DNA of 64,000 nt. It comes from Schmidtea polychroa. Its lineage: Eukaryota. The translations under genes were made by a program, and so were the position numbers. Under the pieces are notes generated by a model. That model searched no databases. It saw only the letters and a program-made list of their open reading frames with translations, and was not told the origin of the DNA. Of this stretch, positions 4,846-61,342 are shown in pieces. Location: the NCBI GenBank assembly GCA_044892525.1, contig CM097885.1, forward strand, positions 27,468,001-27,532,000, given 5' to 3'. The stretch's first letter is position 1, and each line of letters starts with the position of its first letter.

Positions 4846-4880
<35 letters not shown>

Positions 4881-5825: not shown

Positions 5826-5836
5826 GCGTGGTCGCC
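5826..5836 (-). promoter_or_regulatory. Primer-binding site of Gypsy element 1, probably tRNA-Arg
   Basis: TGGCGACCACG directly after the 5' LTR, complementary to a ...CGTGGTCG-CCA tRNA 3' end (tRNA identity from memory). Confidence 0.7.
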
Positions 5837-5960
5837 AGTTATGACGTCTTCAACTTCTAAATTCATAAAATCAATAAAACAATAATAAATGCAGTTAAAC
5901 TATATTTTCCAAAAACACGCTAAAAACCATATTATTAAAACAAAACAACTTTCCATAACT
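5837..5960 (-). repeat. 5' LTR of Gypsy element 1
   Basis: Identical to 692-815; adjacent to the PBS. Confidence 0.95.
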
Positions 5961-8288: not shown

Positions 8289-8311
8289 GTAATATTGATT
8301 TCAACCAAAGA

Positions 8312-11300: not shown

Positions 11301-11657
11301 ACAACGGGAGTAAGCCCAGCAGAGATTATATTTGGGAGGAAAATCGACAGAATGAAATGGTACTCGAATAAAGAAATAAATAGAGAAGATATGGAAAAGA
11401 GAATAGAGGATAAAACACTAAAACCAAAAATAAGCAAAACAGTGAGAGATTTTGAAATGGAAGATTTGGTTTTGATCAAACAAGAAATTCGAAATAAAGA
11501 CGATGCAAGGTGGGAAGGGCCGTACAAAGTGATAAAGAAAATACATGAACGGAGCTACTTACTTAAAGATCAAAATGGGAAGATGGTAGTCAGAAATGTT
11601 GAGAAGATCAAACATTTTAAAAAAGGGGGATGTGAGGAGTTAAAATTAAAATACTAA
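8312..11657 (+). pseudogene. pol: Gypsy pol (PR-RT-RH-INT) with one frameshift and one nonsense codon
   Basis: LLDTGA protease; frameshift near 8830-8850; YLDD RT; LDTDAS RNase H; TAG at 10719-10721 inside the integrase HHCC region; DDE core (MDICG, VDCG, IER) and EGPY in 10755..11657. Confidence 0.92.
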
Positions 11658-13621: not shown

Positions 13622-14857
13622 ATGAGTATTCTACAGTTTATTTGGGTTGGAGATTTAGATGAAACAAAAACGCAAAGGCTCCAGAACCCCCAGGCTTTGT
13701 CCTTTGATCGATGCCATCCCAAGAAAATGATAGTCAGACAAGACAAAAAAGAAACTCGTATTGGTAGAAAAAATTCTAAAATGCCCCCAGATTACGCATT
13801 AGAGAGTGCAGTTAGTAATCGTATGATCTCAAGGAACCATGTAACTATTGAAAGATTAAGTAAAGGAAATTATATGTTATATGATCACAGTTTAAACGGG
13901 ACATATGTAAATTTTGTTCGTGTAATTGGTGGAACTATTCTAAAGCATGAAGATGTCGTATGTTTCGGACATATTAATGGTGCAAATATTAAACCAGGTG
14001 AATCAGTTACACCTTTTGCTACTGATCTAAAATATCGAGTAGAAATAATTGATAAAGTAGGCACAATTCATGAAAAATCTGGTTCTGTTAGAAAAGGAGA
14101 GAACTATTCTCAATCAGAATCTAGTCAATATGAGGAAACAATTACCACAGAACAGAAGCAGAAAAAGGCTAAACATAAACCATTAAATGATAAAACTAAA
14201 AAAGTTAAAGTGGTTAAGCGTGAATCAGACGATTCAGATCAATCTTCAGATTCTTCAGAAAGTAGCAATAATAATCTAAGCAGTAGTTATAAAAAGCAAA
14301 AAAAACCAGTTGATTTGTCATCTGTGTCGAGTTCAGAAGATGACAGATTAAAAAGTTCTAGTAAAGATCGTCAATTTTCTAAAAAATCATTAGATAAACC
14401 GAAGAAACATTCCACAATGTCAGAGTCTCGTTTCAACGATTTATCGGCCCGTAAACGCAAATCCGGTAATGAAAATAACGCGAATCCAAAGCTTGGTTTC
14501 AAAAAGTCACATGAATCGAAAAGACCAATGAAAGGTGATGAAGATCGCCGGATGTTATCGTCTGGAGTTAAAGATCGAAAATTGCATTTAAATCAGAAAT
14601 CCCATTCGAAACCAAAATATTCGGATAATAATGGCAATGCAAATGCGAATAAATCTATGAAGCGAAATGTAAATTTAAATTCCAACTATGACTATGAAGA
14701 GTGTAGTGCTCGTCCATGTTTGCGGCCGGATGGTGAAACTTTAATCGATTGGATTATGTGTGATAAATGCACCCAATGGTTTCATCAATCATGCGTTGGA
14801 CTTGACGAGGCAGTGGAAGATGACGAGAGTTACTATTGTCCATATTGTGTTCATTAG
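13622..14857 (+). CDS. TCF19: TCF19-like protein: N-terminal FHA domain, S/K-rich linker, C-terminal PHD finger
   Basis: FHA motifs IGR, ISRNH, SLNGTYVN; PHD CSARPC...WIMCDKCTQWFHQSCVG...YYCPYC; intact 411-aa ORF. Symbol rests on domain architecture only. Confidence 0.8.
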   Translation: MSILQFIWVGDLDETKTQRLQNPQALSFDRCHPKKMIVRQDKKETRIGRKNSKMPPDYALESAVSNRMISRNHVTIERLSKGNYMLYDHSLNGTYVNFVRVIGGTILKHEDVVCFGHINGANIKPGESVTPFATDLKYRVEIIDKVGTIHEKSGSVRKGENYSQSESSQYEETITTEQKQKKAKHKPLNDKTKKVKVVKRESDDSDQSSDSSESSNNNLSSSYKKQKKPVDLSSVSSSEDDRLKSSSKDRQFSKKSLDKPKKHSTMSESRFNDLSARKRKSGNENNANPKLGFKKSHESKRPMKGDEDRRMLSSGVKDRKLHLNQKSHSKPKYSDNNGNANANKSMKRNVNLNSNYDYEECSARPCLRPDGETLIDWIMCDKCTQWFHQSCVGLDEAVEDDESYYCPYCVH

Positions 14858-22957: not shown

Positions 22958-25900
22958 TTGTGTCCACGTCGGGAGTCTGACTTAAATGATTCTCGTGTTG
23001 AATTAACAAGCGATGTATCTGCAATTAATTCTCCTGACATTGTTGTTCCAGATTGTCTCATCAAAGAAATAGAAGATCATATTCAACGAATGGGGACAGT
23101 AAAAATCCAATTTGGACTTTGTGCAGAGTTTATCAAAGAGGATGGTGAAATTAAAAAATGGTGTTTGTCGAATAAAGCAATTACAATGTCATCTTCATTT
23201 ATTAATGATGGAATTGAAAAATTAAAAGAAAAGTTGGAGAAATACACTCAACAAAGTAGTGGGTGGAGAATTCATAAAATATTTGAAGTTACTATGATTT
23301 TAACTAAATTATCAGACATAATACATGTATCTGGTAAGTTTATTTACATTATATATATATATATATATATAAATATAAACAAGATATTTACTTAGGTTCA
23401 AGTTACATTAAAACGCCAAATTACCTGAAAAACTGTCAGGCTTTAGTTAATGTTCAAAACAATGATCAATTCTGTTTTTTATATAGCATACTAGCCGTAT
23501 TACATTATGATGATATACGTCGGGATAGAGAAGGAACAACAAAATATAACTTAAGTGGTAATATATATGTATTTAGAGTTAAAATGGAAATCAGATTGGT
23601 TTCCAATGAAGTTGGTTAACATTTGCCAATTTGAAGCAATGAATCCAAATCTAGCGATCAATGTTCTCAAATATAATAAAGATCCAATTAAACAAAAAAC
23701 TAATGATATTTTCAAGAATCCGTTCGTTGACTTGGTATATAGAAGTACTTCGACGGGATCTCAGATATATCTCCTATTGATTGAAGAAGGTAATATTTCT
23801 TTTAATCATTAAAAATATTAACTAAATTTTAGAATTAAATTATCATTTTTTGGCTGTAACTAATCTCGATCGACTGCTGAATTACAGAGATAGAGTAGAA
23901 GGAGTCAGAATCCAATCACATTGGTGTCATACATGTCTTCATGGGTTTCAAAAACGTCCTGCTTTTGAAAGACATATAGGTCTTTGTAGGAAGAATGTGG
24001 AGCGTACGACTCTATACTCAATGCCAGAGAATAAATATATCGAATTTAAAGACTGGAGTAAAACTATAAAACAGCAGTTTGTTGTCTACGCGGACTTTGA
24101 ATCAATATTACCTCTAGACGACAAACACTTCCAAAAACATGAGCCGATTGCATCTGAATTTGTGCTTCTTCATCAAGGTTGTCCGATCCGAAATGAAACA
24201 TTTGTTGGGAAAAACTGTATCATTCAGTTCATATAAGCATTGGATGATATAGCTACAGACATAGTTTATCCGTGGTATAAAATTAATGGATCAAAGGAAA
24301 TGATGGAACTCACGTGGGAACAGCAGGAAGAATTCACGACTCAAACTCATTGCTACCTTTGTAAAAAGATTATCAATATACCTGTTCGAGATCATGATCA
24401 TTTTATTGGTCAATATCTGTAAGCAGCGTGTCAAGATTGTAATTTGGCTAGAATAATCAATCCGTCTTTACCTGTTGCAATTGGAAAATTCCCCGATTGG
24501 AATTTAATTGTTATTCCTCAATCAACAGATAAGTTTTTCACACTTACAGCGACATCGAAAAGCAGAAGAATTAGATTCATTGATTCTTTACAATTTTTAA
24601 ATAGCAGCTTGGCAAATTTATCAAAAAACTTGCCACGTCTTCCACTTACTTCAAAGATTTTCAATTCTCATCTAATAACTGGTAAAGGCATATTTCCTTA
24701 TGATATTGCTACGTCAATGGATGTTTTACAGTCAATAACAGAATTACCATCGATTTGGGAGGGAGTTAGTCAAGAAGATTATATACATGCAAATCAAATC
24801 TGGCGACAATACAACTGTGAGACACTGCTAGATTACATGCTCGTATATCTCAAGTTGGATGTTTTTCTGTTGGCCGATGTTTTTGAAGCTTTCAGAGAAA
24901 AACATTTGACGAAGATGGACTTGAGGCTCTATCGTTTGTTTCCATACCCGGATTAAGTTGGGCATCAGCTATTAAACAGTTACCTGAACCGGTAGAACTT
25001 ATTCAAGATCCAGAGCTTTACCGTTTATTTGAAGCTGGTATTCGTGGTGGAATGACATTTATCAACAAACATCATGTTGAAGCTGATGAATCAACACAAA
25101 TGTCAAACCTAGATGTTAATAATTTATATGGATGGGCGCTGTCGCAAAAACTTCCTGTTGGTGAATTTAGATGGATAAATGATCAGACTGAAATGAATGG
25201 TATTGTTGAAAGATGTGCAAATGGGGATGAGTTTGATTGAGATCGTGGATATGTTCTAGAGGTTGACATCGTCATTCCTGTTAGTATACAAGATAAGTTA
25301 GATGATTTACCTATAGTTCCTGAGCTTTGTTATCCACCTGGTAGTAAAGTTGAAAAGCTGTTGTTAACTCATGAGCCTAAGAAAAACTATGTAGTTAATG
25401 GTAGAGTTTTGACTGAATGGTTGAGTTATGGCGCAAAAGTCACAAAAGTTAATTGTGCTGTAGAATTCAAGCAAGTAGCTATTTTCAAAGGCTATATTTA
25501 TTACAATACTCAAATGAGAGCAGCTAGTACAGATTCATTTCAGCGAGATTATTATAAGTTAAAGAACAACAGTTTATACGGTAAAACCGTGGAAAACCTT
25601 AAGAAACGTATAAATTTGAGATTATGCAGCAAAAGCAAAAGATTGATAACTTATTGTAGTAATCCTATGTTTCGTCGTAGCATCAAGATTGCGGATGATC
25701 TCATTGCTGTTATACTTGATAAGGAAATGGTGTGTTTAGATAGACCAATGTATATTGGACAAACCGTACTTGATTTATCTAAACTTCGCATGTACCAGTT
25801 TCAATATAAAGAACTACAGAGTTATAGAGAAGAATTCAATTGTCAAATTAATATCGTAGCCGGTGACACAGATTCCTTCTTTTTAGAGTGTAAAAATGTT

Positions 25901-26389
25901 GATTTACGCTTACAACTGTATCCAAAAATGGTTGTCGATGGGCTCCTAGATACTTCAAATTATCCAGTGACTGATCCATTGTTCTCAGATAAAATTTGTT
26001 CGGTAATCGGGAAACTCAAGGATGAGAATAAAGGAAATCAATATAAAGAATGGGTGTTTCTTCGACCCAAGTGCTACTCACTCCAAGGCGATAAAAACAC
26101 TCTAAAAGCCAAAGGAATAAGACTTACAAACTCTAATCTTACACATGAAGCCTATAAAAAAGTGTATACTGATGGTGGAACAGTGAGCATCCCACAAAAA
26201 AGAATAGGAAGTGTCAATCATCAGTTGTATACTTTCATGACCGAAAAACGAGCTCTCCAATGTTTGGATGATAAAAGGTATTGGTACAATTGTAATGAAA
26301 GTTATGCCTACGGTCACTATAAGATTCGTCAAATGCATATTGCAACTGCTATGTCTAGAAATGAATGCAAATCGAAACAAGCACTTTAA
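22958..26389 (+). pseudogene. polB: Polinton/Maverick-type protein-primed family B DNA polymerase, intron-containing, decayed
   Basis: SSGW, GSSYI..P, zinc finger, VYADFES exonuclease, CYLC..RDHDH (endonuclease VII-like), FIDSLQF, KGIFPY, IRGG, LDVNNLYG, KLKNNSLYGKT, GDTDS, RPKCYS; GT-AG introns at 23334-23395, 23558-23576, 23790-23832; several stops and frameshifts. Confidence 0.92.
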
Positions 26390-40281: not shown

Positions 40282-42980
40282 ATGAAAAGAACTTTCGAGT
40301 CTGGCGCACAAAAACGATTGTGAAAAAAAATTCAATTGAAGGAAAACGAAAATCAAAGAAACTCCCTTGCTAAATTTATGTCTTTGGATAAAAATGTTCC
40401 ATCTACCAGTACTGCGACTGCAGATAAAACTGTTTCACTACCAGTAATAGCTGGTAGCGATGTTAATCTTTCGATAAGCAGTCTTTGTGCAGAAGTAGGT
40501 GCAAGTGATAATTGCGTTCCCACTACCAATGACATTGAGGTTGAAATTGAGAGTGAAGTAGTAAGTACAAATACTTATCCTATCTTTACTGACATTGGTT
40601 TATGGCCAAAAATAATTACTAATGATTTGATTGAACATTGTATCTGTACAAAACCCAAAAATGTGGGAGATTTAGAATCTTCTAAAAAATGTTATAAAGA
40701 TAACAATGATCAACAAATATACCGAAAATTAAATGATGTACATTTTTATACGACTAAAATAAACGGAGTTCAAGAGCTAAGAGAATGGTTGATTTATTCT
40801 GAAACAACGAAATCTGTTTATTGCTTTGCTTGTAAACTATTTAGTAAAAAATCTAATGTTCTAGTTTCAGGATATTCAGATTGGAAAAATATTGTAGACG
40901 TTTTGAAAAGACATGATGAGTCGAAAGAACATAAAAGTTGTATGTGTGCTTATGTTCGTCGTGCTAAAATAAGTGGTCGCATCGATTCCAAACTTTTACA
41001 GGTAATAGAAAAAGAGTCAATTTATTGGCGAGAGGTATTAAAACGAGTCGTTGCTACAGTTAAACTTTTGGGGAGTTTGGGTTTAGGGTTCAGAGGACAT
41101 GATAATTCTTCCAAAGGCAATTTTTTCAGCTGTATTGAATATTTGGCTGAATTTGATGACTTCTTAAAGGTTCACTTAGAAAAATACAGTAATTGCGGAA
41201 GTGGGCATGTTACCGTATTTTAGCGCATATAACGCGCACGTTATACGCATTTTTACAAACCGTGCACCCCCCCATGCGCGGTATCTGTGGGTGCGCGCTT
41301 TATGATTTATATTTTACACGTGGCGGCATTGCCAGTGGAAATATTTTTATGATGTGACAGTAACCCTACCATCGGTTTTATTGTTTATTGTAATCAGATA
41401 CCGTGCGCGTTATATGCGCTAAAATACGGTAATTATTTATCTAAAAGTACGTGTGATGAATTTATAGAACTTATGGGCAAAACCGTACAAAAATCCATTG
41501 TTGATGAAATAAAACAAGCTAACTATTTTGCTCTTATAGTTGATTCCACGCCTGATGCAAGCCATACTGACCAGTTAACTATTATTATCAGGTACGTAGA
41601 TCTGGATCAAAAAATTCAAGAAAGGTTCATATGTTTTATTTCGATTGAATATCATGATGCAACATATTTAGAAAAAACGATTTTGTCCGCCTTGTCAGAA
41701 TTAGGGTTGAACATTAATAATTGCCGGGGACAAACGTATGATAATGCTGCGAACATGTCAGGCATTTATAACGGTCTCCAAGCCAAAATTAAATGTTACA
41801 GCAAAAATGCTGAATTTGTACCTTGCGCAGGACACTCTTTAAATTTAGTTGGAAATACAGCAGCAGAATGTTCTTCTAAAGCTATTAGATTCTTTGATTT
41901 TATTCAAAATTTGTTTGTTTTTTTTCCTCTTCGACAAAGAGATGTGATCAGCTAATGAATACTGATCAAACATTAAGCCATACTTTAAAACGTATATGCG
42001 ACACTCGATGGTCATCTAGAGCTGAAGCTGTATTAACTGTAAGAATGAATTTTTCTTCCATAAAAACTGTTCTTGGTGAAATTTGTATTAACCCATCTGA
42101 AAAACCCATAGCGAAAATTGAGGCGAAAAAATTACATAGCAGTTTTGAAGATTTAGAGACGGCTCTGTTATTGATTTTTTGGAATACGCTATTGCAAAGA
42201 ATCAATGCCACCAATAAATCGTTACAAAGCAAAGAATGTAACTTACAAAAAGGAACATATTTATTGAAATCTTTATCAGAATTCATACTTAGTATTCGAA
42301 CTAATGATGCATATTTTCACCAAATTGAAAAAGAAGCCATCGAATTATCTGGTAGTACAGAATACTCAACAGCAAAATATCGAAACAGGAAAAGAAAAAT
42401 ACTATTCGATGAAACTTCTGATAATGACACAATTTTATGTGGGAAAGAATTATTCAAAGTTGAAACATTTTACTCAATTTGTGATACTTTAAACTGTGAA
42501 ATAAAAGAAGGTCTGTAGTTTATGACAAGGTATTAGAAAAGTTTCTAATATTTGTTGATTTAGATTTGCCTGAAGAAAAATTTGCTCAGTGTGTATCAAA
42601 TTTAGCTGAACACTATAAAGATGACATAAATCAATTAGTATTCAAAGATGAGGTTGAACAGTTCCTTCATTTTGTAAAATTGGAAAAATTATTAACACTT
42701 CCTGAAATGTATGCATCAATTCTGGAAGGTTTATCTTCAACATTTCCAAACGTTGAAATAATCCTAAAAATTTTTTTAACAATCCCAATTGCAAATGCGT
42801 CTGGTGAGAGATCATTTAGCATTCTTAAGCGGGTCAAAAACTACCTAAGGACGTCACTTGGCCAAAAAAAACTAAATCACTTGGCTATCATGGCAATTGA
42901 AAGCGATCTAGTAAAAAAATTAACTATGACTCATTAATTGATAATTTTGCAAAAAATAAATCACGAAATAAAATATTATA
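40282..42980 (+). pseudogene. ZMYM1-like hAT transposase with stops/frameshifts
   Basis: REWLIYS..YCFACKLF, FRGH, DSTPD, GQTYDNAANMSG, CAGHSLNL, DTRWSSR, ASGERSFS (dimerization domain) over ORFs 40336, 41473, 41955 and 42566. Confidence 0.9.
41213..41429. mobile_element. Tc1/mariner (pogo/Tigger-type) MITE inserted in the hAT transposase
   Basis: Perfect 28-bp TIR ccgtattttagcgcatataacgcgcacg with TA duplication; removal restores GSGHVNYLSKSTCDEFIELMG. Confidence 0.93.
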
Positions 42981-46516: not shown

Positions 46517-47088
46517 TACTATGAAGTCCGAATACAAAAGCGATGATAAATTGTGTGGATTTGTGCGATGTTTAACAGCACTCGCACATGTCCCAGTTGA
46601 TGATGATGGTGAATCATTCGACTTGCTAGCTAAACGGATGCATAAACACGAAAAAAGATGAACCGACCGTGGATCAAGAGTTCATGGATGAATCTTCCGT
46701 GAATGAAAAGTTTGCATGCCATTCTGGTTTACGTTGGAAACAGCATAAGGGATATAATGATGGTCATCTGTAACCCACCAATGATATATTGAGAATAGTG
46801 AAGGTATTGATAAATGACAAAGAATTCACATCCGACCATACATTCTCTGCGAACTAGTGACATCCAGATTTTTTTGAGTTAAATTAGATTTATTTTTTCT
46901 AAAATTATTTTATTTTAAGTACATACACACCCATGATTTGTTATTTTAAACCTTAGTTGTTAACATGAATTTAATTGATTATTTCAAACAATCAAATTAT
47001 TAAATAATTTTATTTTTATTTTATTGTGGCCTTTCATTAGCGATTTTAATAAGAATTTTTCATAATTCTTATTTAATTATTTTTTATT

Positions 47089-47678
47089 ATTTTTCGAGCC
47101 ACTACATTCCTAATTTATCTGATTACGGTTTTTGTATGAAAATACAACCAATAATCATTCTTCATTTTTGATATTTTTAATTCGCTCTTTCATTTACTAT
47201 TCTCATTCTTTTGAGTCCACAGGTTTTTCGAATGCGTTGTTTCTCACTTAACTATATCATTGTAACTAATTGCGTTTATCAATTTTATTATACTTGTTTA
47301 TTTATCCTCAATGTGTTGTGTACTTTACTTTGTACTGTTTTATGTATAATCATATATTTTGATTCGATTTGGTGCAGTTTCCTTGCTATATATTTACAAC
47401 GCATTTTCGGCTCTAGCCCAACAAAATGGTTAGATTGTTGTTATATTGACGTGGGATTTTGGATTTCCTTTGAATTGGGTTTTCATTTTCTGTCTTTTGA
47501 GTCAATGTTGATAGGACATTTATTTGATCACGTACTGTAATGCTTAATTTGGGCGAATGTCTCGATGGCCCTGTTCTTGTATTTCAACACTACAACTATA
47601 CCAAGTTTCAGTCCAATAGTTGCATAACAGAAATCGTAATGATGTAGCACAACATAAAATGAAAAGGTTATATGCCAA
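47089..47678. repeat. Left copy of ~590-bp direct repeat flanking the Polinton
   Basis: Near-identical to 60757-61342; ends exactly at the agtagt terminus. Confidence 0.92.
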
Positions 47679-48572
47679 AGTAGTGTGTTTATATCCCTAA
47701 CCAAAACAGCCCTCCCAACAAAACATACCTCCATTACGCCTAAACCATTAGAAAAACAATCTAAAACTTATACTTTTATAGTATTTTAACCCTATATTTT
47801 TGAAAACAACCACCCTTAATGACTCTAAACCCTCAAACTCAAAAGCTTCAAACTAAAAACATAAAGAGAATAGAAAAGAAAATGGTATTATGAAAAAGTT
47901 GGAGGGCTATTTTGGTTAGGGATATAAACACACTACTTGAGGATGTCAACTAGCAACTTGCTATTTGACTAATTTGACTCATTAAAAAATAAATATAAAA
48001 ACATCATAAAAAATCAAAACAGGGTTATACAAAAGTTAAATATTTTATAAATCTTGAAGAATAAAAAATTTTATGAAATAGTAAAACTGCTCTGAGAGGA
48101 CAGTGGTTTTTTTTTTTTCACTGTCCTCTCAACAGTTTTTTTGATCCGGATCATTTTTTTATTCAACCTCTTTCGTTTATCAAATCTCTTCCAATATACA
48201 AGCTGGCCAGACTTATACATCAGAATCAATTCGATCTTGAAAGTACAAATGAATTCGAAAGCGAATCCGAAAGAGGTCCGAAAACAACTGAGAAAGGGAT
48301 CGATCCGGGTGTGTTCGAAAGACTGGTGGCGATAATTACCGATTCGCCATCACACCCGTTTCAATATATATTTTTTTCATATTTATGTTTAAAAATTAAT
48401 TAATTAATAAAAAAATAAAATAAATAAAATAAAATATACAACTACTTTATAAATCTAAGATACCCACACCATTTTCAATATTATTTTCAAATTTTTAATA
48501 TTATTTTATGTTGAAAAAAAACTAACCTCAGATGTGATTTGAACCGCTATCTATTTGAACCACTGTGCCAGT

Positions 48573-48842
48573 CTAGCCCACTGCGCTATCTTGCTTTGGA
48601 TTTTTGTCATTTTTACAACTATAAATAATCGATTCAAGTTCTTTAACTCTTTCCTGTAATTGTTTCATTTTCTTTAACCTTATCTCAGCAACTTCTACAG
48701 CTTTCATGTAAAAATGTCGATACTTTTCATTCTCTACCATCAACTCTTTGATGTATTCTAATGGTTCTTCTTCTCTTCTTTTCATTCTCTTATGTTTAAC
48801 TTCATTCAATTCATTTCTCATTCTTTCAATTAAGTCAGTCAT
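48573..48842 (-). CDS. Small coiled-coil protein of the Polinton, unknown function
   Basis: 89-aa charged helical ORF with aaaATG context, divergent from the capsid gene. Confidence 0.55.
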   Translation of the reverse strand: MTDLIERMRNELNEVKHKRMKRREEEPLEYIKELMVENEKYRHFYMKAVEVAEIRLKKMKQLQERVKELESIIYSCKNDKNPKQDSAVG

Positions 48843-48889: not shown

Positions 48890-50176
48890 ATGAATAATAT
48901 AAAAATTCAAGAAAAAAATAAATTAAATCTTGATTATAATAAAGAATTTACTCATGAAATCAAGAAAAATGATGTACTTAAAATATCCCCAACTTCAGGA
49001 TCTATAGCAAACTTAAATCGTAGGGGTGATATAGTTTTTCAATCTCTTCAAACATCAAACCCAATAGATATTTGTAATGCCAAATTATATTATAAAATTG
49101 AATTAGAAATTGAAGCAAACAAAGATATAACCCTAGAAAATAATTTCTTTCCAAATTTATTCTCCAACATGAGATTAAAACTAGGATCATCAGAAATTGT
49201 AACTGTTTTACATCCAGGAGTATATTCTACAATGTTAAATTTTATTTTGACTGGTTGTGATTATAAAAATGAATATGGTAAATTAACAGGTTGGATTCCT
49301 GATGTTAATAAAGGGGATTTAGATAAAGATGGTTTAGATATAAATTATGCTTACTATAAAAGAGCTGAACTTTATAAATCTAAAAAATTTGAAGGTTATT
49401 TTGAATTAAAACACTTGTTTGGATTCCTTCAAAACTATAATCGTATACTTCATAATGTTTTTATAGAATTAGTTTGTAATAGAGTAGAAGGTGATAAAAG
49501 ATTGTTCTATGGAGATAAGGATACAACAGCTAAATTAAAAATATCAACACTTGAATTGCATATACCTGAATGGCCATTAAATCCACATTCTGAAATCAAA
49601 CTCCTTGAAAGATTAAATTCCAACAAGTCTATAAATGTAAATTATTTAAATAGAATCTGTAGTGAATTTAGTATGACAGAGGGTTCAACATATTCTATAA
49701 AGGTAGCAAATTTAGCATACCGACCAAGATATATCTTGATTGGATTCAAAGAAGTAGATTCATCTTTCCAAAAAAATAACAACCTATTTATTCAAAAGAT
49801 TGAAAATGATAATTTAAAAACAATCCAAATTCAATTAAATAGTTCTTATTATCCAATAAATAGAATGGAATTTAATATTGAAAATAATGAAAACATATTC
49901 CCATATCTAAATTATATTGGAACATGTTATGATTTCAAAGTTGAACCACAATTAAGTTTAGAAGATTTCAAAAATTTATATTCTATATTTTGTATAAATG
50001 TATCAGATCAAGATGATAGATTAGCCATAAATAATGTTGATGTTACACTTCATGTAACAAAGGATTCTAATTTCAAAGCTAAAGTATATACATTAATATT
50101 AGAAGAAAAGAAAATAGAAATGAAATTATATGGTGGAAAGATTTCAATTATTGAAAATGTTAGGGGAGATTCTTAA
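48890..50176 (+). CDS. Major capsid protein (double jelly-roll, Polinton PY/hexon-like)
   Basis: Intact 428 aa, beta-rich; NNFFPNLFSNMRL, PRYILIGF, YSIFCINVS motifs; genomic context. Confidence 0.8.
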   Translation: MNNIKIQEKNKLNLDYNKEFTHEIKKNDVLKISPTSGSIANLNRRGDIVFQSLQTSNPIDICNAKLYYKIELEIEANKDITLENNFFPNLFSNMRLKLGSSEIVTVLHPGVYSTMLNFILTGCDYKNEYGKLTGWIPDVNKGDLDKDGLDINYAYYKRAELYKSKKFEGYFELKHLFGFLQNYNRILHNVFIELVCNRVEGDKRLFYGDKDTTAKLKISTLELHIPEWPLNPHSEIKLLERLNSNKSINVNYLNRICSEFSMTEGSTYSIKVANLAYRPRYILIGFKEVDSSFQKNNNLFIQKIENDNLKTIQIQLNSSYYPINRMEFNIENNENIFPYLNYIGTCYDFKVEPQLSLEDFKNLYSIFCINVSDQDDRLAINNVDVTLHVTKDSNFKAKVYTLILEEKKIEMKLYGGKISIIENVRGDS

Positions 50177-50193
50177 TATTTTAACATTTTAAA

Positions 50194-51633
50194 ATGTCTC
50201 TAAATAAACCGTATTGGAGATGTGAAACTTGTAATTGTCAAGTTACAAAATATCACAAAGCAAATCATTTAAAAACTAAAAAACACATACTTGGATCAAA
50301 TACTAATTCTTGGTTAGAACCCAATCCTTCAAGTAGATTTGCTTTTGAGAATCAACTCTTTGAAGGAGGTGATCTACAATCTTCAAAAACAACATCTTCA
50401 ATATTAAAACCTTTTACTACAGAAAAATATCCAGGTGAAAGACATTTATTTAAACACAACTATACCGGACCAGGAACAAGATTAGATATTAGATTAGATG
50501 AAAATAATAATCCTAAACAAGGAGAAGAACCAATAAATAGAATTGATCAAGCAGCTTTAAAACATGATATTGCTTACAATTCAACAAATCTTAGAGATAG
50601 ACATGTTGCAGATGTGAATTTAATACATGATTTAAATAATATACAAAATCCATCAACTCAAGAAAAGATTCAAAAAGCTCTAGTTAAATTAGCAATGAAA
50701 GGTAAGATTTTCATAGGCTTAGGACTTCCCCCTAGGAAAGCAAAAGATGTTGCTAATAAAAAGATTATTGAACAAGCAGACGCTGAAAGATCCCTCGAGA
50801 ATATATCCAAGACTAGTTTACAAACCCCAACAGAATCACAAATAAAATATGCCAACGAATTACACCATGAATTTAGAAAAAATAAAAAATATTTAAAAGT
50901 TCAAGTACATGAAAAAGATCAAACATGGTCTGCAGATTTAGTCTTTATGCCAACCAAATCATCAGACCCTGAAAAATATAAAATAATTTTAACTGTAATA
51001 GATTTATATACAAGATTTGCTTTTGCAAGGTGTTTAGAAAATAAAACAGGATATTCTATTACAGAAGCATTTGAAAATATATTTGAACAACATCAAAGAA
51101 TTCCAAAATATTTATGGTGTGATAAAGGAACAGAATTTTATAACAAAGTTTTTACAAAGTTTTTAAATGAAAATGATATTAAATTATATTCAACAGAAAA
51201 CGAAGGAAAAGCAGTCGTAGTTGAAAGATTAAATAGAACATTAAAAAATAAAATGTGGAAATATTTTACTGCTATTGGAAAACAAAAATGGAACAATGAA
51301 TTGTTACAAAAGATTGTAAATGAATATAATAATGATGTACATAGTTCTATAAAATCAACACCTTTAAATGCTTCCTTGAATCCTTTGGAACTCATAAATC
51401 CTGTTGAAAATGATGTTATTGAAAAACCAAAGTTTAAAATTGGTGACCGAGTAAGAATATTTAAATATAAAAATAAATTTGAAAAAGGATTCACAGCAAA
51501 ATGGACAAATGAAATTTTTATTATAAATAAAATACATTATACAACTCCAATAACATATAGCATCATTGATTTAAATAATGAAAAAATATTAGGTAGATTT
51601 TATAATAATGAACTACAGAAAACAGATTTCTAA
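50194..51633 (+). CDS. Zinc finger + parvovirus-type phospholipase A2 + retroviral-type integrase fusion
   Basis: CETC..H..H; NYTGPG...IDQAALKHDIAY; WSADL, WCDKGTEF, VVERLNRTLK (DDE); FKIGDRVRI C-terminal domain; one open frame of 479 aa. Confidence 0.9.
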   Translation: MSLNKPYWRCETCNCQVTKYHKANHLKTKKHILGSNTNSWLEPNPSSRFAFENQLFEGGDLQSSKTTSSILKPFTTEKYPGERHLFKHNYTGPGTRLDIRLDENNNPKQGEEPINRIDQAALKHDIAYNSTNLRDRHVADVNLIHDLNNIQNPSTQEKIQKALVKLAMKGKIFIGLGLPPRKAKDVANKKIIEQADAERSLENISKTSLQTPTESQIKYANELHHEFRKNKKYLKVQVHEKDQTWSADLVFMPTKSSDPEKYKIILTVIDLYTRFAFARCLENKTGYSITEAFENIFEQHQRIPKYLWCDKGTEFYNKVFTKFLNENDIKLYSTENEGKAVVVERLNRTLKNKMWKYFTAIGKQKWNNELLQKIVNEYNNDVHSSIKSTPLNASLNPLELINPVENDVIEKPKFKIGDRVRIFKYKNKFEKGFTAKWTNEIFIINKIHYTTPITYSIIDLNNEKILGRFYNNELQKTDF

Positions 51634-52418
51634 AACAAACTTTTCCATATTTCAGCTTCTTCTCTATCCAAATAAATATAATTATATTTTTCTTTCCAAT
51701 GATTATCAACAAACATATCAAACATATTCTTATCAGGTTCAACATTTGAAAATAAATCATTATAAATCATATTCTTATCACGGCGATCTAATTTAAAAAA
51801 TATAAAACAATTAGAATTATTTCTTATTGAATTTTTATCTAAAGCATAATAAGTTTGAGATATATAAATAACATTACAATTATTATGTCTTCCTCTTGTA
51901 AAGTAACTCTTTTGAATCTCTTGATTTTTCATATTAACAACATCATCAAATATAACTAGAATCTTTTTATCTTTAGGAAGTAAATCACAATGTTAAACAT
52001 CTTCAGGTTTATTAGAGAATAAAACTTGAATCCCCTGCCCCTCTTCACAAATATAATCATTTTTATTACTAATATCTGATTCTAAAATCTTTTCCTTATA
52101 CCAATCAACCATATCACAAGGTTGAAAAACTTCTTCAGGACATCTATGTTGATTTTTAAAAATATCAATTATTGCTTTTTTAGTTAATTTATTTGCAAAT
52201 CCACATTTCAAAAGTTGTAATTCTGGTTGATTTATAGTTGTAGAGTAAAAGATTAAATTATTATAATCTAAAAAACCATCTTCAAGCAACATTTTCAAAA
52301 CAAGTACATTCTTTCCACATCCAGAAGAACCAACAATTAATAATCTAAAATTATCAGGAAATACTTTATTATTAAATTTAGATTTATGTCTATTTAAAAT
52401 TGGTTTCCAAATATCCAT
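51630..52418 (-). pseudogene. A32/FtsK-like DNA packaging ATPase with one in-frame stop
   Basis: Walker A GSSGCGK; TAA at 51993-51995; read-through gives Walker B LVIFDD, then RGRHNNCNVIYISQ. Confidence 0.9.
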
Positions 52419-52433
52419 TTTATTTATTTAAAA

Positions 52434-53027
52434 ATGACAACTGAAGAATCTTTGCAAGAATTAATAAATTCAAATAAAAATAAATCAGTAGTAATTGATG
52501 GTAAAAAATATTTTATTGGAAAACATGTAAAAGAACAAGTTAGAGCGAAGATTAAAGAAGGTGGCATTCTTCCATTAGCTGCTTTAATACCTGCAATCAT
52601 TGCCGGACTATCAGGTGCTGCTGAAATAGCTGGAGGAATCGCAACTACAGTTCAAAAAGCTAAAGAATTTCAAAAGACAGACCTAGAAAAAGAAAAATTA
52701 CAAACTGAAATCGATTCAATAAAAAAGAAGGGACTGTCCGAAGGTCAAAATTCCGTTGGAAAAGGTCTCTATCTTAATCCATATCAGAAAGTGTCCGAAG
52801 GTCAAAAGTCTCAGGGGAGTTCCTTCGTTGGAAAGGGTCTCTATCTTGATCCTTATAAAGGCCGCGGTTTAAATGATTTTTTAAAAAATCAAATTTCATC
52901 ATCTGAATCTTTATCTTCAAAAGATAAAGATGATTTAAAAAAAATGTGTAAATCTTTAAAGAATGGATGCCTTTGTAAAACTAAAAATGGTAAAGGATTA
53001 TATTTAAAATCTTGGAAGGAACCATGA
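52434..53027 (+). CDS. Putative virion core/membrane-active precursor protein
   Basis: EGG followed by hydrophobic ILPLAALIPAIIAGL; repeated GKGLYL motifs; 197 aa. Confidence 0.6.
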   Translation: MTTEESLQELINSNKNKSVVIDGKKYFIGKHVKEQVRAKIKEGGILPLAALIPAIIAGLSGAAEIAGGIATTVQKAKEFQKTDLEKEKLQTEIDSIKKKGLSEGQNSVGKGLYLNPYQKVSEGQKSQGSSFVGKGLYLDPYKGRGLNDFLKNQISSSESLSSKDKDDLKKMCKSLKNGCLCKTKNGKGLYLKSWKEP

Positions 53028-53938: not shown

Positions 53939-54403
53939 ATGACTAATCCTTCAATATTAGATTTTTTAAAAACATTTGGAATAAATGCAAAAACAAATTT
54001 TGATTTAAAAGATTATGCAAATTATTTAAATTTAAAAATAAAAATATTAATGAATGATGAATTATCAAGTCTGAAAGATATTCTGAAAGAAGACACTCAA
54101 AAGAAACGAAGTCCCCTGAATATTATTATAAATTATCAAAATTCAAATGAGAAAGGATCTCATTGGGTTTGTATATATAATAAATCTATATACTTTGATT
54201 CTTTTGGGATTAAACCTACTAAAGAAGTTGAAGACTATCTCTCGAGGGGTTCCACTTTTAATTCTTTACAAGTTCAACCTAATAATACTAAAATATGTGG
54301 TATTATAAGTTTATATGTTTTGTATAGAATGAATAAATCCAAAGGAGAAGGTTTCACTTCCTTAATCCAAGAAATTTATAATGATTTAAAATCTCTATTA
54401 TGA
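53939..54403 (+). CDS. Adenain/Ulp1-like cysteine maturation protease
   Basis: GSHWVC, YFDSFG and QVQ....CG catalytic motifs. Confidence 0.9.
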   Translation: MTNPSILDFLKTFGINAKTNFDLKDYANYLNLKIKILMNDELSSLKDILKEDTQKKRSPLNIIINYQNSNEKGSHWVCIYNKSIYFDSFGIKPTKEVEDYLSRGSTFNSLQVQPNNTKICGIISLYVLYRMNKSKGEGFTSLIQEIYNDLKSLL

Positions 54404-55170
54404 AAATGGAGCTTCGCAACCTTCTGGAAGATAATTTTAAAAAAATGGTAAACATAATGTCAGATAAATATTCAAAAACTTTATCTATAAATTCAAAAGA
54501 ATCAGACTTTACTATAAACTTTCAAGATTCAATAAAATTAGATCAAGATTTAAATTATGAATTAGGTCTATTATGGTTTTGTGTTTATAATACTATTTTT
54601 AATATAACTAAAGATAATAACATATTTTATTATATAAGCCCAAAATCTACAGATAAGATTATAATAACAATCGAACCTGGGGCTTATGAGATAAAAGATT
54701 TAAATAATATACTTTCTAAAAGAACAAATGGAGCCATTAAAATTAAAATGGATTTACCAACTTCAAAATGTATAATGACTTTAGAGAATATAGGAATTCA
54801 TTTTCAAAATAATAGTTTCTTTAGAACAATTTTAGGATTTACACGAAACCATTATATCACACCTATAGTTGAGAATATAACATCAGAAAATATTATAAAA
54901 ATAATAAATACAAACACAATAAATATTCATTGTGATTGTATAACAGGTTCTTATAATAATAGTAAACAAACAAATGTTTTATATTCCTTTCCCTCAAACA
55001 CAGTTCCTATGGGATATAAAATAGTTGAAAGAATGAATCCTCCAAATTATTTGCTTTTATGTAGAAAATATATAATGGATATTAATTTTAAAATTCTTAA
55101 CCAAGAAGGAGAATTGATTGATTTTAATGGAGAAGAGATTTCAATGTATTTACATCTGAAACAGGTTTGA
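54400..55170 (+). CDS. Minor capsid protein (penton-like, Polinton PX)
   Basis: 256 aa; PGAYEI, ILGF, INIHCDCITGSY, IDFNGE motifs; follows the protease. Confidence 0.8.
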   Translation: MKMELRNLLEDNFKKMVNIMSDKYSKTLSINSKESDFTINFQDSIKLDQDLNYELGLLWFCVYNTIFNITKDNNIFYYISPKSTDKIIITIEPGAYEIKDLNNILSKRTNGAIKIKMDLPTSKCIMTLENIGIHFQNNSFFRTILGFTRNHYITPIVENITSENIIKIINTNTINIHCDCITGSYNNSKQTNVLYSFPSNTVPMGYKIVERMNPPNYLLLCRKYIMDINFKILNQEGELIDFNGEEISMYLHLKQV

Positions 55171-55652
55171 AGATTCATTTTAAATTATTAATAAATGAGT
55201 TCTTATATTCCTTGTAATAGAGGTGGTGGAACAATAAAAACAGGGTTTAATACAGAAGAAATATTAACTTTAACAGAAAATAAATATATTAATGAAAGAG
55301 GTGATTCAATGAAAGGAGATTTAAATTTAAATGGACACAAGATAAAAGATTTATCTTTACCAACTGATGAAGGTGATGCTGCTAATAAAAAATATGTAGA
55401 TGGTGTTAAAAATTATACTGATTTAACAACAACAAGAATTGAAAGTTCATTAACAACAAAAATTGATACCTTGATAGAATCCAAAGTTAATTCTTTGATG
55501 GAATCCAAGCTTAATAATATCGAACAACGATTTAATGATAAATTTGACAAGTTACAAAGTCTGTTAACTGAACAAGTTGTAAAGTTAAATACTAGTATAT
55601 TAAACTCTAAAGATAAACAAATTATGAATACTAAATTTAATACAATATATAA

Positions 55653-58306
55653 CAGGGCTGGCAAAAGCGTCGACCGCGGTCGACTAGTCGACCGCGTAGC
55701 TATCGAAAGTAGCCCGCTAGCACTATGGAAAATTGCATATAAAAATCAGTTTTTTATTTATTGAATTTCTAACTTTATAAACATATTTAAAATAAGTTTC
55801 GATTCATATGACAAAAAAATTCCAATAAGAAACATAATATTAGTCAGATAACACTCAGAGTGTAGTAAATTTTTAGTTTGAAATTCAAATATATACAGTT
55901 AGCTAATAATCAGAATAAATTTCATGTGTTTGAACAAGTAGGTCATAAAATAAAAGCAAAACATTGACGCTACAATCTTCGATAAGGAATAAAAAAATAA
56001 AAAACAACCAAAATAAAATACAACAAACGTGTGTTTGTCTATTTCAATTTTGAAATCAAATTGTTTTCGTTAGAAAAATTTGAAAGCTTGAAGTATTCAG
56101 TATTGAATAATACCTGCTTATAATATTAATTTCAAAATTTTTTTATTAAAAAAAATTCTTTATAAAAGTTAACATTTTTAATTTTTGAGTATGTAAGTGT
56201 GTTTAACATTAATTTTCATATTTAATTTATTTTAGCTTTTATTATTTTCTTGTTTTAGCCCCAATGACACAACGGGCCAAAAAAACTAAAACGTACCATT
56301 ATAATACTGAATGGGAACAGGAATTTTTTTTCATAATGATGAAAGATAAGTGTGTTTGTCTCATTTGTAATTCAAACGTAGCACTACCTAAAAGAGCTAA
56401 CGTTGAACGACATTTTCGAACAGTGCACAAACAGTATGAAATTGACTTTCCATTACATTACGAGGTACGAAAAGACAAAGTCAAGCAGTTAAAGTCTCAA
56501 TTAGGTGCACAACAAACTTTTTTTACGAAATTTAACTCAAAATCAAAAACAGCTACCCTAGCATCATTCAAGGTAGTTAATATTTTGATGAAACATAAAA
56601 AACCTTTTGGAGATGGCGAAATATGGAAACAGGCGTTTGTTGAAGCTGGTGAGGTGTTATTCAAAGATTTTAAAAATAAATCCGAAATAATGGATTGTAT
56701 CAACAATATGTCATTGACGCGCAATACTAGCACGCAAAGAATGGTGGACATTAGCAAAAACTTGGAAGATATTTTGCGGCAAGATATTCGAAAATGCCGC
56801 TTTTTCTCTTTGCAATTTGATGAATCTACAGATTTCACTGATACTGCGCAACTATGCATCTTCATTCGAATGGTTTTTGATGATATGTCAACCAGAGAAG
56901 AATTATTGACTATTCTTCCAATGAAAGGACAAACAAGGGGTCAAGATATTTACAATTTATTCAAGTCTTTTATAAGTCGCACCCATTTCCCGATTCACAA
57001 GTTGGTATCAATTACCACGGATGGAGCTCCGTCTATGATCGGAAAACATGTCGGATTTGTAACACTTTGCAAAAAAGATGAAGAAATTCCCAGTTTTCAT
57101 TCGTATCATTGCATTATCCACCAGCAAACCTTATGCTCCAAAGTGTTGAACTCTAACTATGTAATGAATATTGCGTTTAAAATAGTAAATTCGATACGTG
57201 CAAGAAGTCTACAACGACGTCAATTTCGAACTTTGCTTGAACAATGTCAAATTGAAAATACTGAATTATTGTTACACACGGATGTAAGATGGCTTAGCCG
57301 TGCAGCATTTTTAAAACGATTTAGAGATCTTTTGCCCGGAATAAAACAGTTTTTGACTGGAAGAGAAGAATTATATCCCGAACTGGAGGATAAAAGTTGG
57401 CTGATAAATCTTGCTTTTCTTTGCTACATTACAGAGCACCTGAATAAATTAAATTTACAGCTTCAGGGGAGACACAAATCAATTCTTGACATGATAACGG
57501 CAGTAAAGACGTTTAAAGAGAAACTGTCCTTGTTTGTGCCTCAACTAGAACGGGGTGATTTGAAACATTTAAAAAACATGGAAGAAGAATCCAAAAATGC
57601 GCCAGGAATTCTTTAGGATAAATATACAAATCAAATTACTACCCTTTTAAATGAATTTAACACACGTTTCGCAGATTTATCTAAAATTGCAAATATTTCT
57701 ATGTTCATGTCATTCCCGTTTAATGATGTTATTGATACAGAGGAGATCGCTACTCAGATTAATGAATTTCTGGATTCAGATTCAGCTTGCTTAGAAGATG
57801 AGATAATAGCGTTGAAAAGCGACATTTACTTAAAATCAAGAGCTACAACCGAAGATAATTTTTGGAATCTTATTTCAGAAGAAAAATATCCAATTTTGCG
57901 GAGAGTAATTGGATATATGTCCGCATTTTTTGGATCCACCTATCTTTGTGAATCAGCCTTTTCTTCAATGAATGTCATTAAAACAAAACATCGATCTTGT
58001 TTGACAGATGATCATTTGGAATCATGCTTGCGGATCGCCATAAGCTCCTATTGCCCGAAATACGAAGAACTTGCTGATAAGATGCAGTGCCACGTATCAG
58101 GTGCAAGTAGTAGCAGTAAATAATATTATATTAAGATATGTTTACGTTCTAGTAAAGTATTATAAGTTTTTTTCTAATTCGTTTTGTATTTAAATAGAAT
58201 AAATAGAATAACTACAGGTAACAATTGAAAATAGTTTTTCTGGTAGACCGCCAGATTTAATTTAGTTAAAAGTCGCCCGCAAGACTTGAAAGTTTTGCCA
58301 CCCCTG
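55653..58306 (+). mobile_element. Full-length hAT (Buster/Charlie, GTF2IRD2-like) transposon
   Basis: TIRs cagggctggcaaaa/ttttgccacccctg; perfect 8-bp TSD atatataa (55645-55652, 58307-58314). Confidence 0.95.
56264..58123 (+). pseudogene. hAT transposase with a single in-frame stop
   Basis: CLIC..RHF zinc finger, DESTD, TTDGAPSM, HCIIH, VRWLS, STYLCESAFS; TAG at 57614-57616; both ORFs share one frame. Confidence 0.93.
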
Positions 58307-58902
58307 ATATATAATATAATAAATGAGATGATTACATCATTTAATAAAAGACTTTCAAATTTAGAGTCTCATACAACACACATTAATACCACACATAGTA
58401 TTAGAAAAGGAGCTGCTGAATTAGAACAGAATAAAACATTATTACCCCATACATATAAACATTTTATAGAACCAACTTTAATAACAACAAATAGTAAAGA
58501 ATGGAGTGTTTTTATGGTTGTAAAGATTATTGATCCTTATTTCTTTTTATTTGATGATGATAATGAAAGAATGAAATGGTTTGTGAAATGTGATTATAAT
58601 AGTAAGCTTGAAAAGGGTGATGTTATAATTACTGCTTATGATTTACCACACGGAGATTGGTATGTTAATACTCATTCACATGGACTACATAAAGTTAAAA
58701 GTAAGAATATTATTTTTAAAAGCATACTTGTACAATATATAGATTTAATATTTTATGAAAAAAAGGTTGATGTTGATGAAGTTCGTAAAGCATTGATGGA
58801 ATTGTATAAAGATATTCTCTCAACAAGAGTTTCTTTTGATATCCGAGTATTGGTGCCAGATGGTGCTCAGAAGAATAAAGTCTTATTTTTTTAATTATTA
58901 AA

Positions 58903-59481
58903 ATGGAAGAAGTAAGAGAAGAAAAAATTTACCCAGAATTGTCATCAAGATATTATTCTTCCAAGGCTCCCTCAGCTCCCACAGAACTTGAAATTATGAG
59001 AGTAAAAGAATTTAAGTCAGAAACCTTACATTTACAAGATTTATTAAAGCATTATAAAAAAATTTAAAATAGATGGAATAAAGGGAATACAGTTTTAAAA
59101 GTTATAGGTTATTCTTTAGGATTTGCATCTGCAATATTAACAGTTATTTTACCTATAACTTTACCAGTTTTAACAATTGCACCTGTACTACTTGGAAGTA
59201 TTTCAGTAGCTGATGGTTTCCTAACTGAAATAGTTTCACTATCTTATACTTCTAAAAAGAAAAGTTTATATCGTGAAGTTTGTTTATCAATAGAATTAGG
59301 AATCTCTAAATTATTTTTATTTCAATTAAAAGCTTTGGAAGATGGAATCTTAACTGATGATGAAATAATGAAATCAAATCAAATAATACAAGATATTAAA
59401 AATAATATTAATAGATTGAAAAGTGCTAATGTTATAACTAATAAAAAAATTAAACGAGAGAAATGGTTAAAGAATTCTTAA
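58903..59481 (+). pseudogene. Polinton membrane protein with YPEL and PSAP motifs (absent from the ORF track; one in-frame stop)
   Basis: Manual translation MEEVREEKIYPELSSRYYSSKAPSAPTE...; TAA at 59065-59067; hydrophobic stretch VIGYSLGFASAILTVILPITLPVLTIAPVLLGSI; ALEDGILTDDE; stop at 59479-59481. Confidence 0.75.
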
Positions 59482-59592: not shown

Positions 59593-60752
59593 TCAGTTAT
59601 GGTTGAAAGCCAACCTATGAATCATTAATTTATAATCTTTAAATTCTTTATCACTTAGACCTTTTATATATTCAGAATCAGTATTAAAATATTTAAGTTC
59701 TAAACATATAGGATTAAAAACTTGAGAATATAAAGGCTTCTCGATTTCTCTCTCGGGATAAATAATTTCAACATTATAAATATCAAGATCGGTAATATTT
59801 GTATCATATAACTTATTCAACTTTTCTAGATTTTTTATTATCGGTATTAAATTATTTCCAATAGGTAGAGTTGTCTTTAAATCACTTAGGATGAATCTTT
59901 TATCATCATAATTTGATAATGATACTTTTTGAGATTCTATCAAGTGAATATCATGGTTTTCACTTTTAAGTTGATGTATTTCATCAATTTTATCTTTATG
60001 ATTTGGATTCAATGTATCTATATAATCTTGATGAGAAAGATTCTTTGCAACTGATTTCTGTATTCCTTTACATCTGTTATCCTTTACAGGTTTTTCTTCT
60101 TGTCCCTCTGGTCCTTTATATATAGGATATCTATGTGTAATGGTTTCTTCTGTTTCTGGAGTTTTAAATATAAATGATCTAGTTATAAATTCAGGATTTC
60201 TAAATGTTTCGTATGAATATTGTTTAGCACGAATAAATATTCCATTTTCTATAGGAGTAAAAGGTTTTTCATCTTTAAACGAAAATAATTCTCCAGATGA
60301 ATTTATTAAATTTGAAAGTATAGGATTTTCGGCTATATCTCTTTGTAAATCATGAGTTCTTATTGTTAAAAACATTGAATCTGTATCCATTGCATGCATT
60401 GATATATTAGAACCATATATAGGTTGTAAGATGTTATAATATGTTTCATACATTTGTAATTTTGAAAGTTCTAAAATTGAAAACCCTATAAATATTGGTT
60501 TGTTGTATGTTTTCTCAAAATTCTTTAGTTCTATTGCAGTAAGATTTTCAGAAAATACTTGTGCGTTTTTAAATGTAGGCTTTCCTAGCATACGATTATA
60601 GCGCTTAATATCTTTGGTAGTATTAGTTAAAAGTTCAATATGAGTATATTTATCAACATTCTCCATTGTTTTCCCAAAGACTGAATTGTTTAAAAGTTTA
60701 TAATTATTATCTTTAAAAAGGTTACCTTCTCTTTTTGCAATGTTTCGGCACC
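59593..60752 (-). pseudogene. polB: C-terminal part of protein-primed PolB, 5'-truncated
   Basis: YKLLNNSVFGKTMEN (read upstream of the listed ORF), PIFIGFSILELSK, MDTDS, RAKQYS, KGI, YDDKR. Confidence 0.9.
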
Positions 60753-60756
60753 TAAT

Positions 60757-61342
60757 ATTTTTCGAGCCACTACATTCCTAATTTATCTGATTACGGTTTT
60801 TGTATGAAAATACAACCAATAATCATTCCTCATTTTTGATATTTTTAATTCGCTCATTTACTATTCTCATTCTTTTGAGTCCACAGGTTTTTCGAATGCG
60901 TTGTTTCTCACTTAACTATATCATTGTAACTAATTGCGTTTATCAATTTTATTATACTTGTTTATTTATCCTCAATGTGTTGTGTACTTTACTTTGTACT
61001 GTTTTATGTATAATCATATATTTTGATTCGATTTGGTGCAGTTTCCTTGCTATATATTTACAACGCATTTTCGGCTCTAGCCCAACAAAATGGTTAGATT
61101 GTTGTTATATTGACGTGGGATTTTGGATTTCCTTTGAATTGGGTTTTCATTTTCTGTCTTTTGAGTCAATGTTGATAGGACATTTATTTGATCACGTACT
61201 GTAATGCTTAATTTGGGCGTATGTCTCGATGGCCCTGTTCTTGTATTTCAACACTACAACTATACCAAGTTTCAGTCCAATAGTTGCATAACAGAAATCC
61301 TAATGATGTAGCACAACATAAAATGAAAAAGTTATATGCCAA
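60757..61342. repeat. Right copy of ~590-bp direct repeat
   Basis: Near-identical to 47089-47678; continues tgccaa|ctacga with no element terminus. Confidence 0.92.

Follow-up and report, generated by a model that had tools for sequence, protein, structure and literature searches.

The window analysed here, a stretch of 64,000 nt from Schmidtea polychroa (assembly GCA_044892525.1, contig CM097885.1, positions 27,468,001 to 27,532,000), contains a Polinton/Maverick element (adintovirus), which is recognised by its capsid and integrase genes, a weak ATPase match and inverted repeats. The element begins with a left terminal inverted repeat (47679..48614) that starts with AGTAGT and whose partner is missing here; the right repeat is present in two other genomic copies. 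A 51-nt internal inverted repeat (47665-47715 and 47901-47951) lies at the extreme end of the left repeat. On the forward strand follow the gene for the double jelly-roll (DJR) major capsid protein (48890..50176; PF21738, E 1.9e-26, over the Pfam cut-off) and a PLA2 domain fused to an rve integrase (50194..51633; PF08398 and PF00665, both over the cut-off). The PLA2 domain is of the parvovirus type (PF08398, E 1e-9), hence the capsid-encoding Polinton with PLA2 that a sequence-only reading of this DNA had proposed is indeed present. The fusion forms a single ORF of 479 aa (50194-51633), to which three metagenomic loci match over approximately 430 aa with 46-49% identity, so that the fused arrangement appears to be conserved. 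The A32/FtsK-like packaging ATPase is encoded on the reverse strand (51630..52418) and is represented here by two ORFs matching Pox_A32 below the cut-off (E 0.003). The ORF at 52434-53027 encodes a glycine/alanine-rich hydrophobic helix with three GKGLYL repeats and matched no family; a similar ORF exists on contig L135, and it may presumably represent the adintovirus core protein of the 'cupiennin'/pX-like type.

Further downstream on the forward strand, the region 53939..55170 encodes a putative adenain-type protease and a putative penton, which lack Pfam matches over the cut-off and which we assign by their position and by motifs that we take to be typical of these proteins. The putative penton (54400-55170) contains PPNY, a PPxY-type motif. 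It is followed by a fibre-like gene (55195..58894, forward strand), which ends 8 nt before the gene of interest and is split by a hAT transposon (55653..58306, forward strand; CAGGG/CCCTG ends, 8-bp target duplication) that is absent from two other copies; in another genomic copy the fibre-like gene encodes 345 aa. The earlier claim of a fiber thus stands as far as a neighbouring fibre-like gene is concerned, but the identity as fibre comes solely from another copy, in which 60 aa match a PHROG tail fibre (E 1e-7). The 'full entry/egress module' suggested for this element is a suggestion from gene content only. The gene of interest sits between the fibre-like gene and the 3' end of a protein-primed PolB gene (59593..60759, reverse strand), which has no Pfam match and is presumably identified correctly by its DTDS motif; the element breaks off at 60759. 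Altogether, the Polinton in the window is defective: its fibre-like gene is split, PolB is cut short and the right repeat is missing. The truncated element is flanked by a 594-bp direct repeat of 98.5% identity (47085-47678 and 60753-61342), i.e. the DNA immediately left of the Polinton reappears directly beyond the PolB breakpoint. This points to a duplication-deletion event and not to a normal target-site duplication. The start context AAAATG, noticed in a search for late-promoter boxes, is common to the gene of interest and eight of nine other element genes checked, and is therefore uninformative on the timing of expression.

The gene of interest occupies positions 58903..59481 of the forward strand and translates into 192 codons plus stop. 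It encodes a broken version of a membrane protein with late-domain motifs that is related to IIV-3 071L/IIV-6 259R and weakly SLATT-like. Translation bears out the features that had been noticed by eye, namely YPEL (aa 10-13) and PSAP (aa 23-26) within the first 26 residues, a long hydrophobic segment, the acidic ALEDGILTDDE and one interrupting TAA. The first motif reads IYPEL (58927..58941, aa 9-13), corresponding to the ALIX V-domain-type motif [LI]YPx[LI], and the second (58969..58980) is of the TSG101 UEV type, which is optional in the family. Kyte-Doolittle windows of at least 1.6 cover 50 residues (aa 64-113; 59092..59241) with five K/R in the left and four in the right flank, predicted to form a two-helix membrane hairpin with basic flanks. 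The acidic stretch (59332..59364, aa 144-154) links two helices through a turn; across the family its D and final E hardly vary. When the window protein was shuffled, 0.5% of the sequences had YPxL and 0.02% had P[ST]AP within the first 35 aa, and none of 200,000 shuffles had both. The premature TAA (59065..59067, codon 55) would leave a 54-aa peptide without membrane anchor; the window copy is a pseudogene and unable to serve as an ESCRT adaptor.

The stop at codon 55 is private to the window copy, since it was found in only one of 27 copies readable at that codon. The host genome contains 2567 candidate matches to the gene; the best 150 were scored, which are 95-100% identical, and 140 of these best 150 have no internal stop. 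Thirty close copies were inspected for the motifs, four of which lacked the anchor, and among the 26 readable ones YPxL is found in 25, PSAP in 24, both in 23 and ASAP in two. Ten more diverged loci share 40-77% identity with the protein P0002 (one of them 51% over a part); all ten adjoin the same fibre-like gene and nine a penton-like gene. YPx[LIV] is kept in nine of them, PSAP in five and ASAP in two, and the linker between the motifs varies from 1 to about 25 aa within host subfamilies. The gene family is under purifying selection, as shown by dN/dS values of 0.03-0.36 for the core in 40 pairs (dS above 0.05) of ten stop-free copies, one of eleven copies being left out for its length difference.

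Searches started from the window protein remained poor: it has no Pfam family, the word-based protein search returned only two near-identical proteins, and the direct locus search and the phage search gave no matches. The full HMMER search with P0002 found 175 representatives at E<=0.001. A first DNA scan for the acidic motif yielded 29 loci, none of them a homologue (best E 0.04), hence the acidic motif alone is not diagnostic. When a degenerate DNA pattern of the C-terminal acidic turn was run over IMG/VR, 18 of 20 loci were homologues, and the profile built from these iridoviral-type loci matched 85 proteins including IIV-3 MIV071L and IIV22_098L. CIV 259R, MIV 71L and DpAV4a 116 make up one of the 28 genes that Table 1 of PMC2712680 gives as the core of the invertebrate iridoviruses and ascoviruses, and we infer the label 259R for locus L077 in part from the pairing with 071L in that table. 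A profile of the helical core from 111 Polinton-side sequences recovered all 78 iridoviral-type proteins at 30-62 bits, whereas reversed decoys reached at most 19 bits, and the iridoviral and Polinton-side members share about 18-23% identity. Moreover, the three top matches of the fold search in BFVD, in which both sides are predicted models, were proteins of IIV22, Liz-CrIV and AVIV (E 3e-5 to 1e-4, TMq 0.51-0.60). Hence, by sequence comparison the family is homologous to the uncharacterised core gene IIV-3 071L/IIV-6 259R. To call it unannotated, as had been done, was an overstatement, because its members include MIV071L and IIV22_098L, i.e. genes already known as uncharacterised iridovirus ORFs; perhaps the family is also already known from adintoviruses under the names 'GasderminX' or 'SLATT'.

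In the Polintons, the gene is an accessory gene of the element. This genomic context is documented for the copies in the own genome, for four of eight metagenomic homologues and for contig L135. The eight homologues came from 34 loci that a core-only pattern retrieved from metagenomes and viral contigs, and the four lie beside a Polinton capsid or PLA2-integrase gene. On the 17.6-kb contig L135 the homologue, with IYPDL followed by PTAP, is placed inside a block of capsid, penton, ATPase and PLA2 genes, accompanied by a PolB-like ORF. Known domain families contributed little: Pfam matched nothing consistently across 128 members, and no Pfam SLATT family was among the 25 of 38 matched families that could be inspected. 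The ESM Atlas returned unnamed clusters labelled Nucleocytoviricota, Preplasmiviricota and Mollusca, and one DUF4231 lead at 0.84.

The conservation of the motifs was scored in 124 complete representatives at 50% identity; they remained from 150 that were taken of the 175, as 26 were without complete N-terminus or core. YPx[LI] occurs in the N-terminus of 93 of the 124 (shuffled mean 1.8, maximum 8), outside of the N-terminus in only one, and the dipeptide YP alone in 111. Of 101 motifs, 83 are preceded by L or I at -1 and 44 end in I and not in L; acceptance of YPxI by an ALIX-family protein is known from the fungal PalA. P[ST]AP is much rarer, being found in 17 N-termini (shuffled 0.12, maximum 2; four in the rest of the protein) and lacking in the other 107 Polinton-side representatives, and the two closest database proteins carry ASAP in its place. 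[PL]PxY motifs are absent from all 124 N-termini. If representatives whose best scored stretch covered the motif are left out, the counts are 74 of 102 for YPx[LI] and 14 of 102 for P[ST]AP. The background was very low, since among 192 unrelated ORFs one contained YPx[LI] and none P[ST]AP, and neither motif exists in the ten other Polinton ORFs or ORF pieces of the window. In the 128-row alignment conservation of 90% or more is reached only by Y16, P17, D158 and E165. All eight metagenomic homologues possess [LI]YPx[LIV]. Among the 18 iridoviral-type loci, which were found with the core/C-terminal DNA pattern, YPxL is present in all and P[ST]AP in 17; in the iridoviral members position -1 is polar or basic (KYPEL) and the hydrophobic stretch is less pronounced.

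The arrangement of the two motifs is free. In 65 of 66 proteins with both motifs PSAP precedes YPxL, the reverse of the order in the window, a count taken from 84 anchored proteins of the first searches that are 90% clusters and thus not independent. Across the family, P[ST]AP is found on either side of YPxL and S and T interchange. On the core tree, a quick tree of 134 rows and 148 columns with many unresolved forks, P[ST]AP requires 18 gains or losses, at least ten of which are forced by supported branches. Functional short linear motifs typically behave in this way, with spacing and order free, S and T exchangeable and gains repeated. In six relatives (P0088, P0093, P0112, P0128, P0166 and P0184) the motifs overlap as YP[ST]AP. 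Judged by these sequence statistics, the late-domain motifs of the family are not chance matches and appear strongly selected. The expectation that both motifs would be conserved among homologs was thus borne out family-wide for YPx[LI], but P[ST]AP recurs in only a minority of the Polinton-side relatives, which counts against a two-motif rule. As far as sequences can tell, YPx[LI] alone is the rule of the family and the presence of two late domains characterises this subfamily and the iridoviruses. YPXnL binds the V domain of ALIX and P(T/S)AP the UEV domain of TSG101 (PMC8402826), so they address two parts of one pathway, and the ASAP of tiger frog virus VP065L bound Tsg101 as well (PMC4880917).

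An AlphaFold2 model on the 128-row alignment (mean pLDDT 86, pTM 0.71) shows aa 1-38 without secondary structure, followed by helices at 39-97, 104-158 and 163-206. The first two helices form a long hairpin with the hydrophobic stretch at its tip, and the third follows the acidic turn. Hence, the motif-bearing N-terminus is predicted to be disordered and the protein to possess two TM helices with both ends, and thereby the motifs, in the cytosol, because basic residues flank the hydrophobic stretch on both sides (positive-inside rule); no signal peptide was seen. A lumenal topology, named earlier as a possible objection, is therefore not what the model of hairpin and basic flanks predicts. The hairpin is weakly SLATT-like. 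NCLDV proteins, several of them named SLATT, follow among the BFVD matches with E 0.05-0.4, and SLATT_1 and SLATT_4 are the NCBIfam models most often matched (at E<=0.05 by 24 and 19 of the 128 members, with best values of 1e-6 and 1e-4, respectively), while the query itself scores 14.8 bits to SLATT_1 against a cut-off of 41. PDB searches by sequence gave keratin as the best match (E 0.04), and by fold no match at E<=0.001, only generic helical bundles; no gasdermin was among the fold matches listed. The VIA-align top Z of 11 to BAR domains and coiled coils lies within the stated noise for helical bundles, and we do not claim a BAR-domain function.

Among known systems, the iridovirus/ascovirus proteins IIV-3 MIV071L, IIV-6 259R and DpAV4a ORF116 correspond to each other and are the true homologues, sharing layout and both motifs, although they are encoded by large NCLDVs and have PSAP before YPxL. 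The literature examined assigned no function to them. The orbivirus (bluetongue) NS3/NS3A protein rather represents an analogue that works alike: a protein of about 200 aa whose two TM helices are joined by a short loop, with late domains in its cytosolic N-terminus and basic motifs before TM1, it bridges a non-enveloped capsid to ESCRT (PMC7409164). Homology to NS3 is without evidence, the NS3 model reaching only E 0.11 and TM 0.25 in the fold search. NS3 uses PSAP and PPRY (NEDD4), whereas the present family uses YPx[LI] and an optional P[ST]AP; binding to the capsid is shown for NS3, and for the present family it is only supposed. The SLATT proteins (SMODS and SLOG-associating 2TM) share the layout of helix, 2TM hairpin and helix, but the profile and fold matches to them are weak. 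SLATT genes have been reported in Polinton-like viruses (PMC12220804) and are drawn on some adintovirus maps (PMC8502044), and in the open-access literature we found no description of a SLATT protein with an N-terminal late-domain tail. The adintovirus 'GasderminX' is a membrane-active accessory gene of beta-class virion modules, described as similar to the C-terminal domain of gasdermin, and the main text of that study mentions ESCRT nowhere (Starrett et al., 2021; PMC8502044). It resembles the present family by the position of the L135 homologue inside the capsid/penton/ATPase/PLA2 block; from the descriptions, the family may be GasderminX under a loose name. Finally, the same motif classes are used by retroviral Gag (YPDL in EIAV, PTAP and YPXnL in HIV-1, PSAP/LYPAL in MLV) and by the quasi-enveloped HAV, where they are combined independently of position (PMC8402826), but there they belong to the capsid polyprotein and not to a separate membrane protein.

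The potential partners exist in the host. Its ALIX V domain matches human ALIX with E 1e-18 over a stretch that comprises the KFY helix, which we take to be the site of the F676 pocket residue; a second gene with a V domain is present, as are two UEV domains. Given the motif, family members are likely to bind ALIX, and where P[ST]AP is present binding of TSG101 is probable. The best explanation we can offer, by analogy to NS3 and with somewhat less than even confidence, is that the family acts as the ESCRT adaptor for a membrane-wrapped exit of the Polinton. The [LI]YPx[LI] of the disordered N-terminus would engage the ALIX of the host and P[ST]AP, in the many lineages that have it, TSG101 as well; the membrane hairpin with its cytosolic motif tail would thus be the element's ESCRT adaptor. 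Its cytosolic helices may hold the capsid, so that particles would bud into endosomes or from the cell surface and leave non-lytically inside membrane vesicles; this capture and budding step is conceivable, with chances just below even. A wider version, in which Polintons and the invertebrate iridoviruses and ascoviruses share an old SLATT-derived adaptor for ALIX (and for TSG101 where that motif re-evolved) that wraps their capsids, is put forward only tentatively. However, ESCRT motifs also function in sorting and turnover and as decoys. As Polinton assembly presumably takes place in the nucleus, a further step would be needed before cytoplasmic budding. The ESCRT-dependent budding of tiger frog virus, a vertebrate iridovirus, is a precedent in favour of our explanation; that only three of its more than 20 proteins with putative L-domains bound counts against it (PMC4880917). 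The final I in about half of the motifs, the lack of P[ST]AP in most Polinton-side representatives, and the -1 residue and less pronounced hydrophobic stretch of the iridoviral members weigh against it as well.

Several other explanations have to be weighed. Chance matches in a dead transposon gene could be suspected, since the element in the window is truncated, its copy of the gene is a pseudogene, and four-residue motifs are common in proteomes. But the motifs are conserved across proteins of 18-40% identity, and shuffle controls, background controls and purifying selection all speak against chance, which makes this explanation hardly credible; for the family it was refuted by the shuffles and background ORFs, and it holds only as the non-function of the window copy. 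It is rather improbable, too, that YPx[LI] represents a YxxPhi sorting signal read by AP adaptors or the binding site of another Bro1/V-domain protein, e.g. HD-PTP, with PSAP as an incidental by-product of a linker rich in Pro, Ser and Ala. YPEL fits the established YxxPhi motif, the host has the second V-domain gene, and only 17 of 124 representatives possess P[ST]AP. However, YxxPhi does not need a proline, and 111 of 124 representatives retain the one at +1 (YP), non-proline YxxPhi is depleted (11 observed versus 37 shuffled), and P[ST]AP lies about 140-fold above composition-preserving shuffles and recurs independently.

Only slightly less improbable is the recruitment of ALIX and ESCRT-III at the nuclear envelope or ER for nuclear exit of the capsid or acquisition of a membrane, and not for release from the cell. 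ALIX is used in herpesvirus nuclear egress, and a dominant ALIX motif with an optional TSG101 motif would suit such a role, but we know of no internal membrane in animal Polintons. The relatives would also agree with this proposal, because invertebrate iridoviruses and ascoviruses, to whose core genes the family belongs (PMC2712680, Table 1), have internal membranes or virion-filled vesicles. The alternative to be taken most seriously, although still unlikely, is a SLATT-type pore or viroporin whose motifs deliver the pore protein to multivesicular bodies or vesicles, or titrate ALIX/TSG101, with lytic exit instead of budding; as a decoy, it would withdraw ALIX/TSG101 from membrane repair or abscission and so block them. 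This explanation draws on the same motif evidence as the adaptor reading, on SLATT_1 and SLATT_4 as the most often matched NCBIfam models, on the NCLDV SLATT proteins in the BFVD list (E 0.05-0.4) and on the view of SLATT proteins as putative pore-formers in Polinton-like viruses (PMC12220804). Against it stand the score of 14.8 bits at a cut-off of 41, a hairpin without conserved polar pore-lining column, and the fact that pore formation by SLATT is itself a hypothesis. NS3 functions as viroporin and adaptor at once, so a pore would be compatible with the adaptor reading.

If the wider version of the adaptor reading is true, it would describe the first identified exit machinery of Polintons and make them quasi-enveloped viruses that spread in vesicles between cells and hosts. 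Moreover, it would assign a function to a core gene of iridoviruses and ascoviruses and imply that a bacterial-type SLATT 2TM domain was converted into an ESCRT adaptor. Horizontal transfer of Polintons has been reported, and Maverick particles had not been observed as of one study (PMC8097293). How invertebrate iridoviruses are released is not known according to a review (PMC5923455), and a review counts 54 virion proteins for IIV-6. Among the matches listed for the open-access literature, we found no report linking Polintons or SLATT to ESCRT, none combining Polintons with egress, extracellular vesicles or late domains, and none on LYPxL in Mavericks/Polintons. An ALIX motif on a membrane protein common to Polintons and insect iridoviruses makes the exit of both testable.

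Outside of the element, the window contains further mobile sequences. Two Ty3/gypsy-type LTR retrotransposons with near-complete gag-pol ORFs lie on opposite strands at 1444-11657 (by eye), and fragments resembling the PolB of a second, different Polinton at 23090-26389 (ORFs 23090-23395 and 25514-26389; likewise by eye). A second hAT-like transposase (40378-42518) is fragmented and carries an insertion of a small inverted-repeat element (41210-41432). Besides these, an intronless ORF of 411 aa at 13622-14857 resembles a host gene, with an FHA-like N-terminal and a PHD-like C-terminal domain judged by eye.
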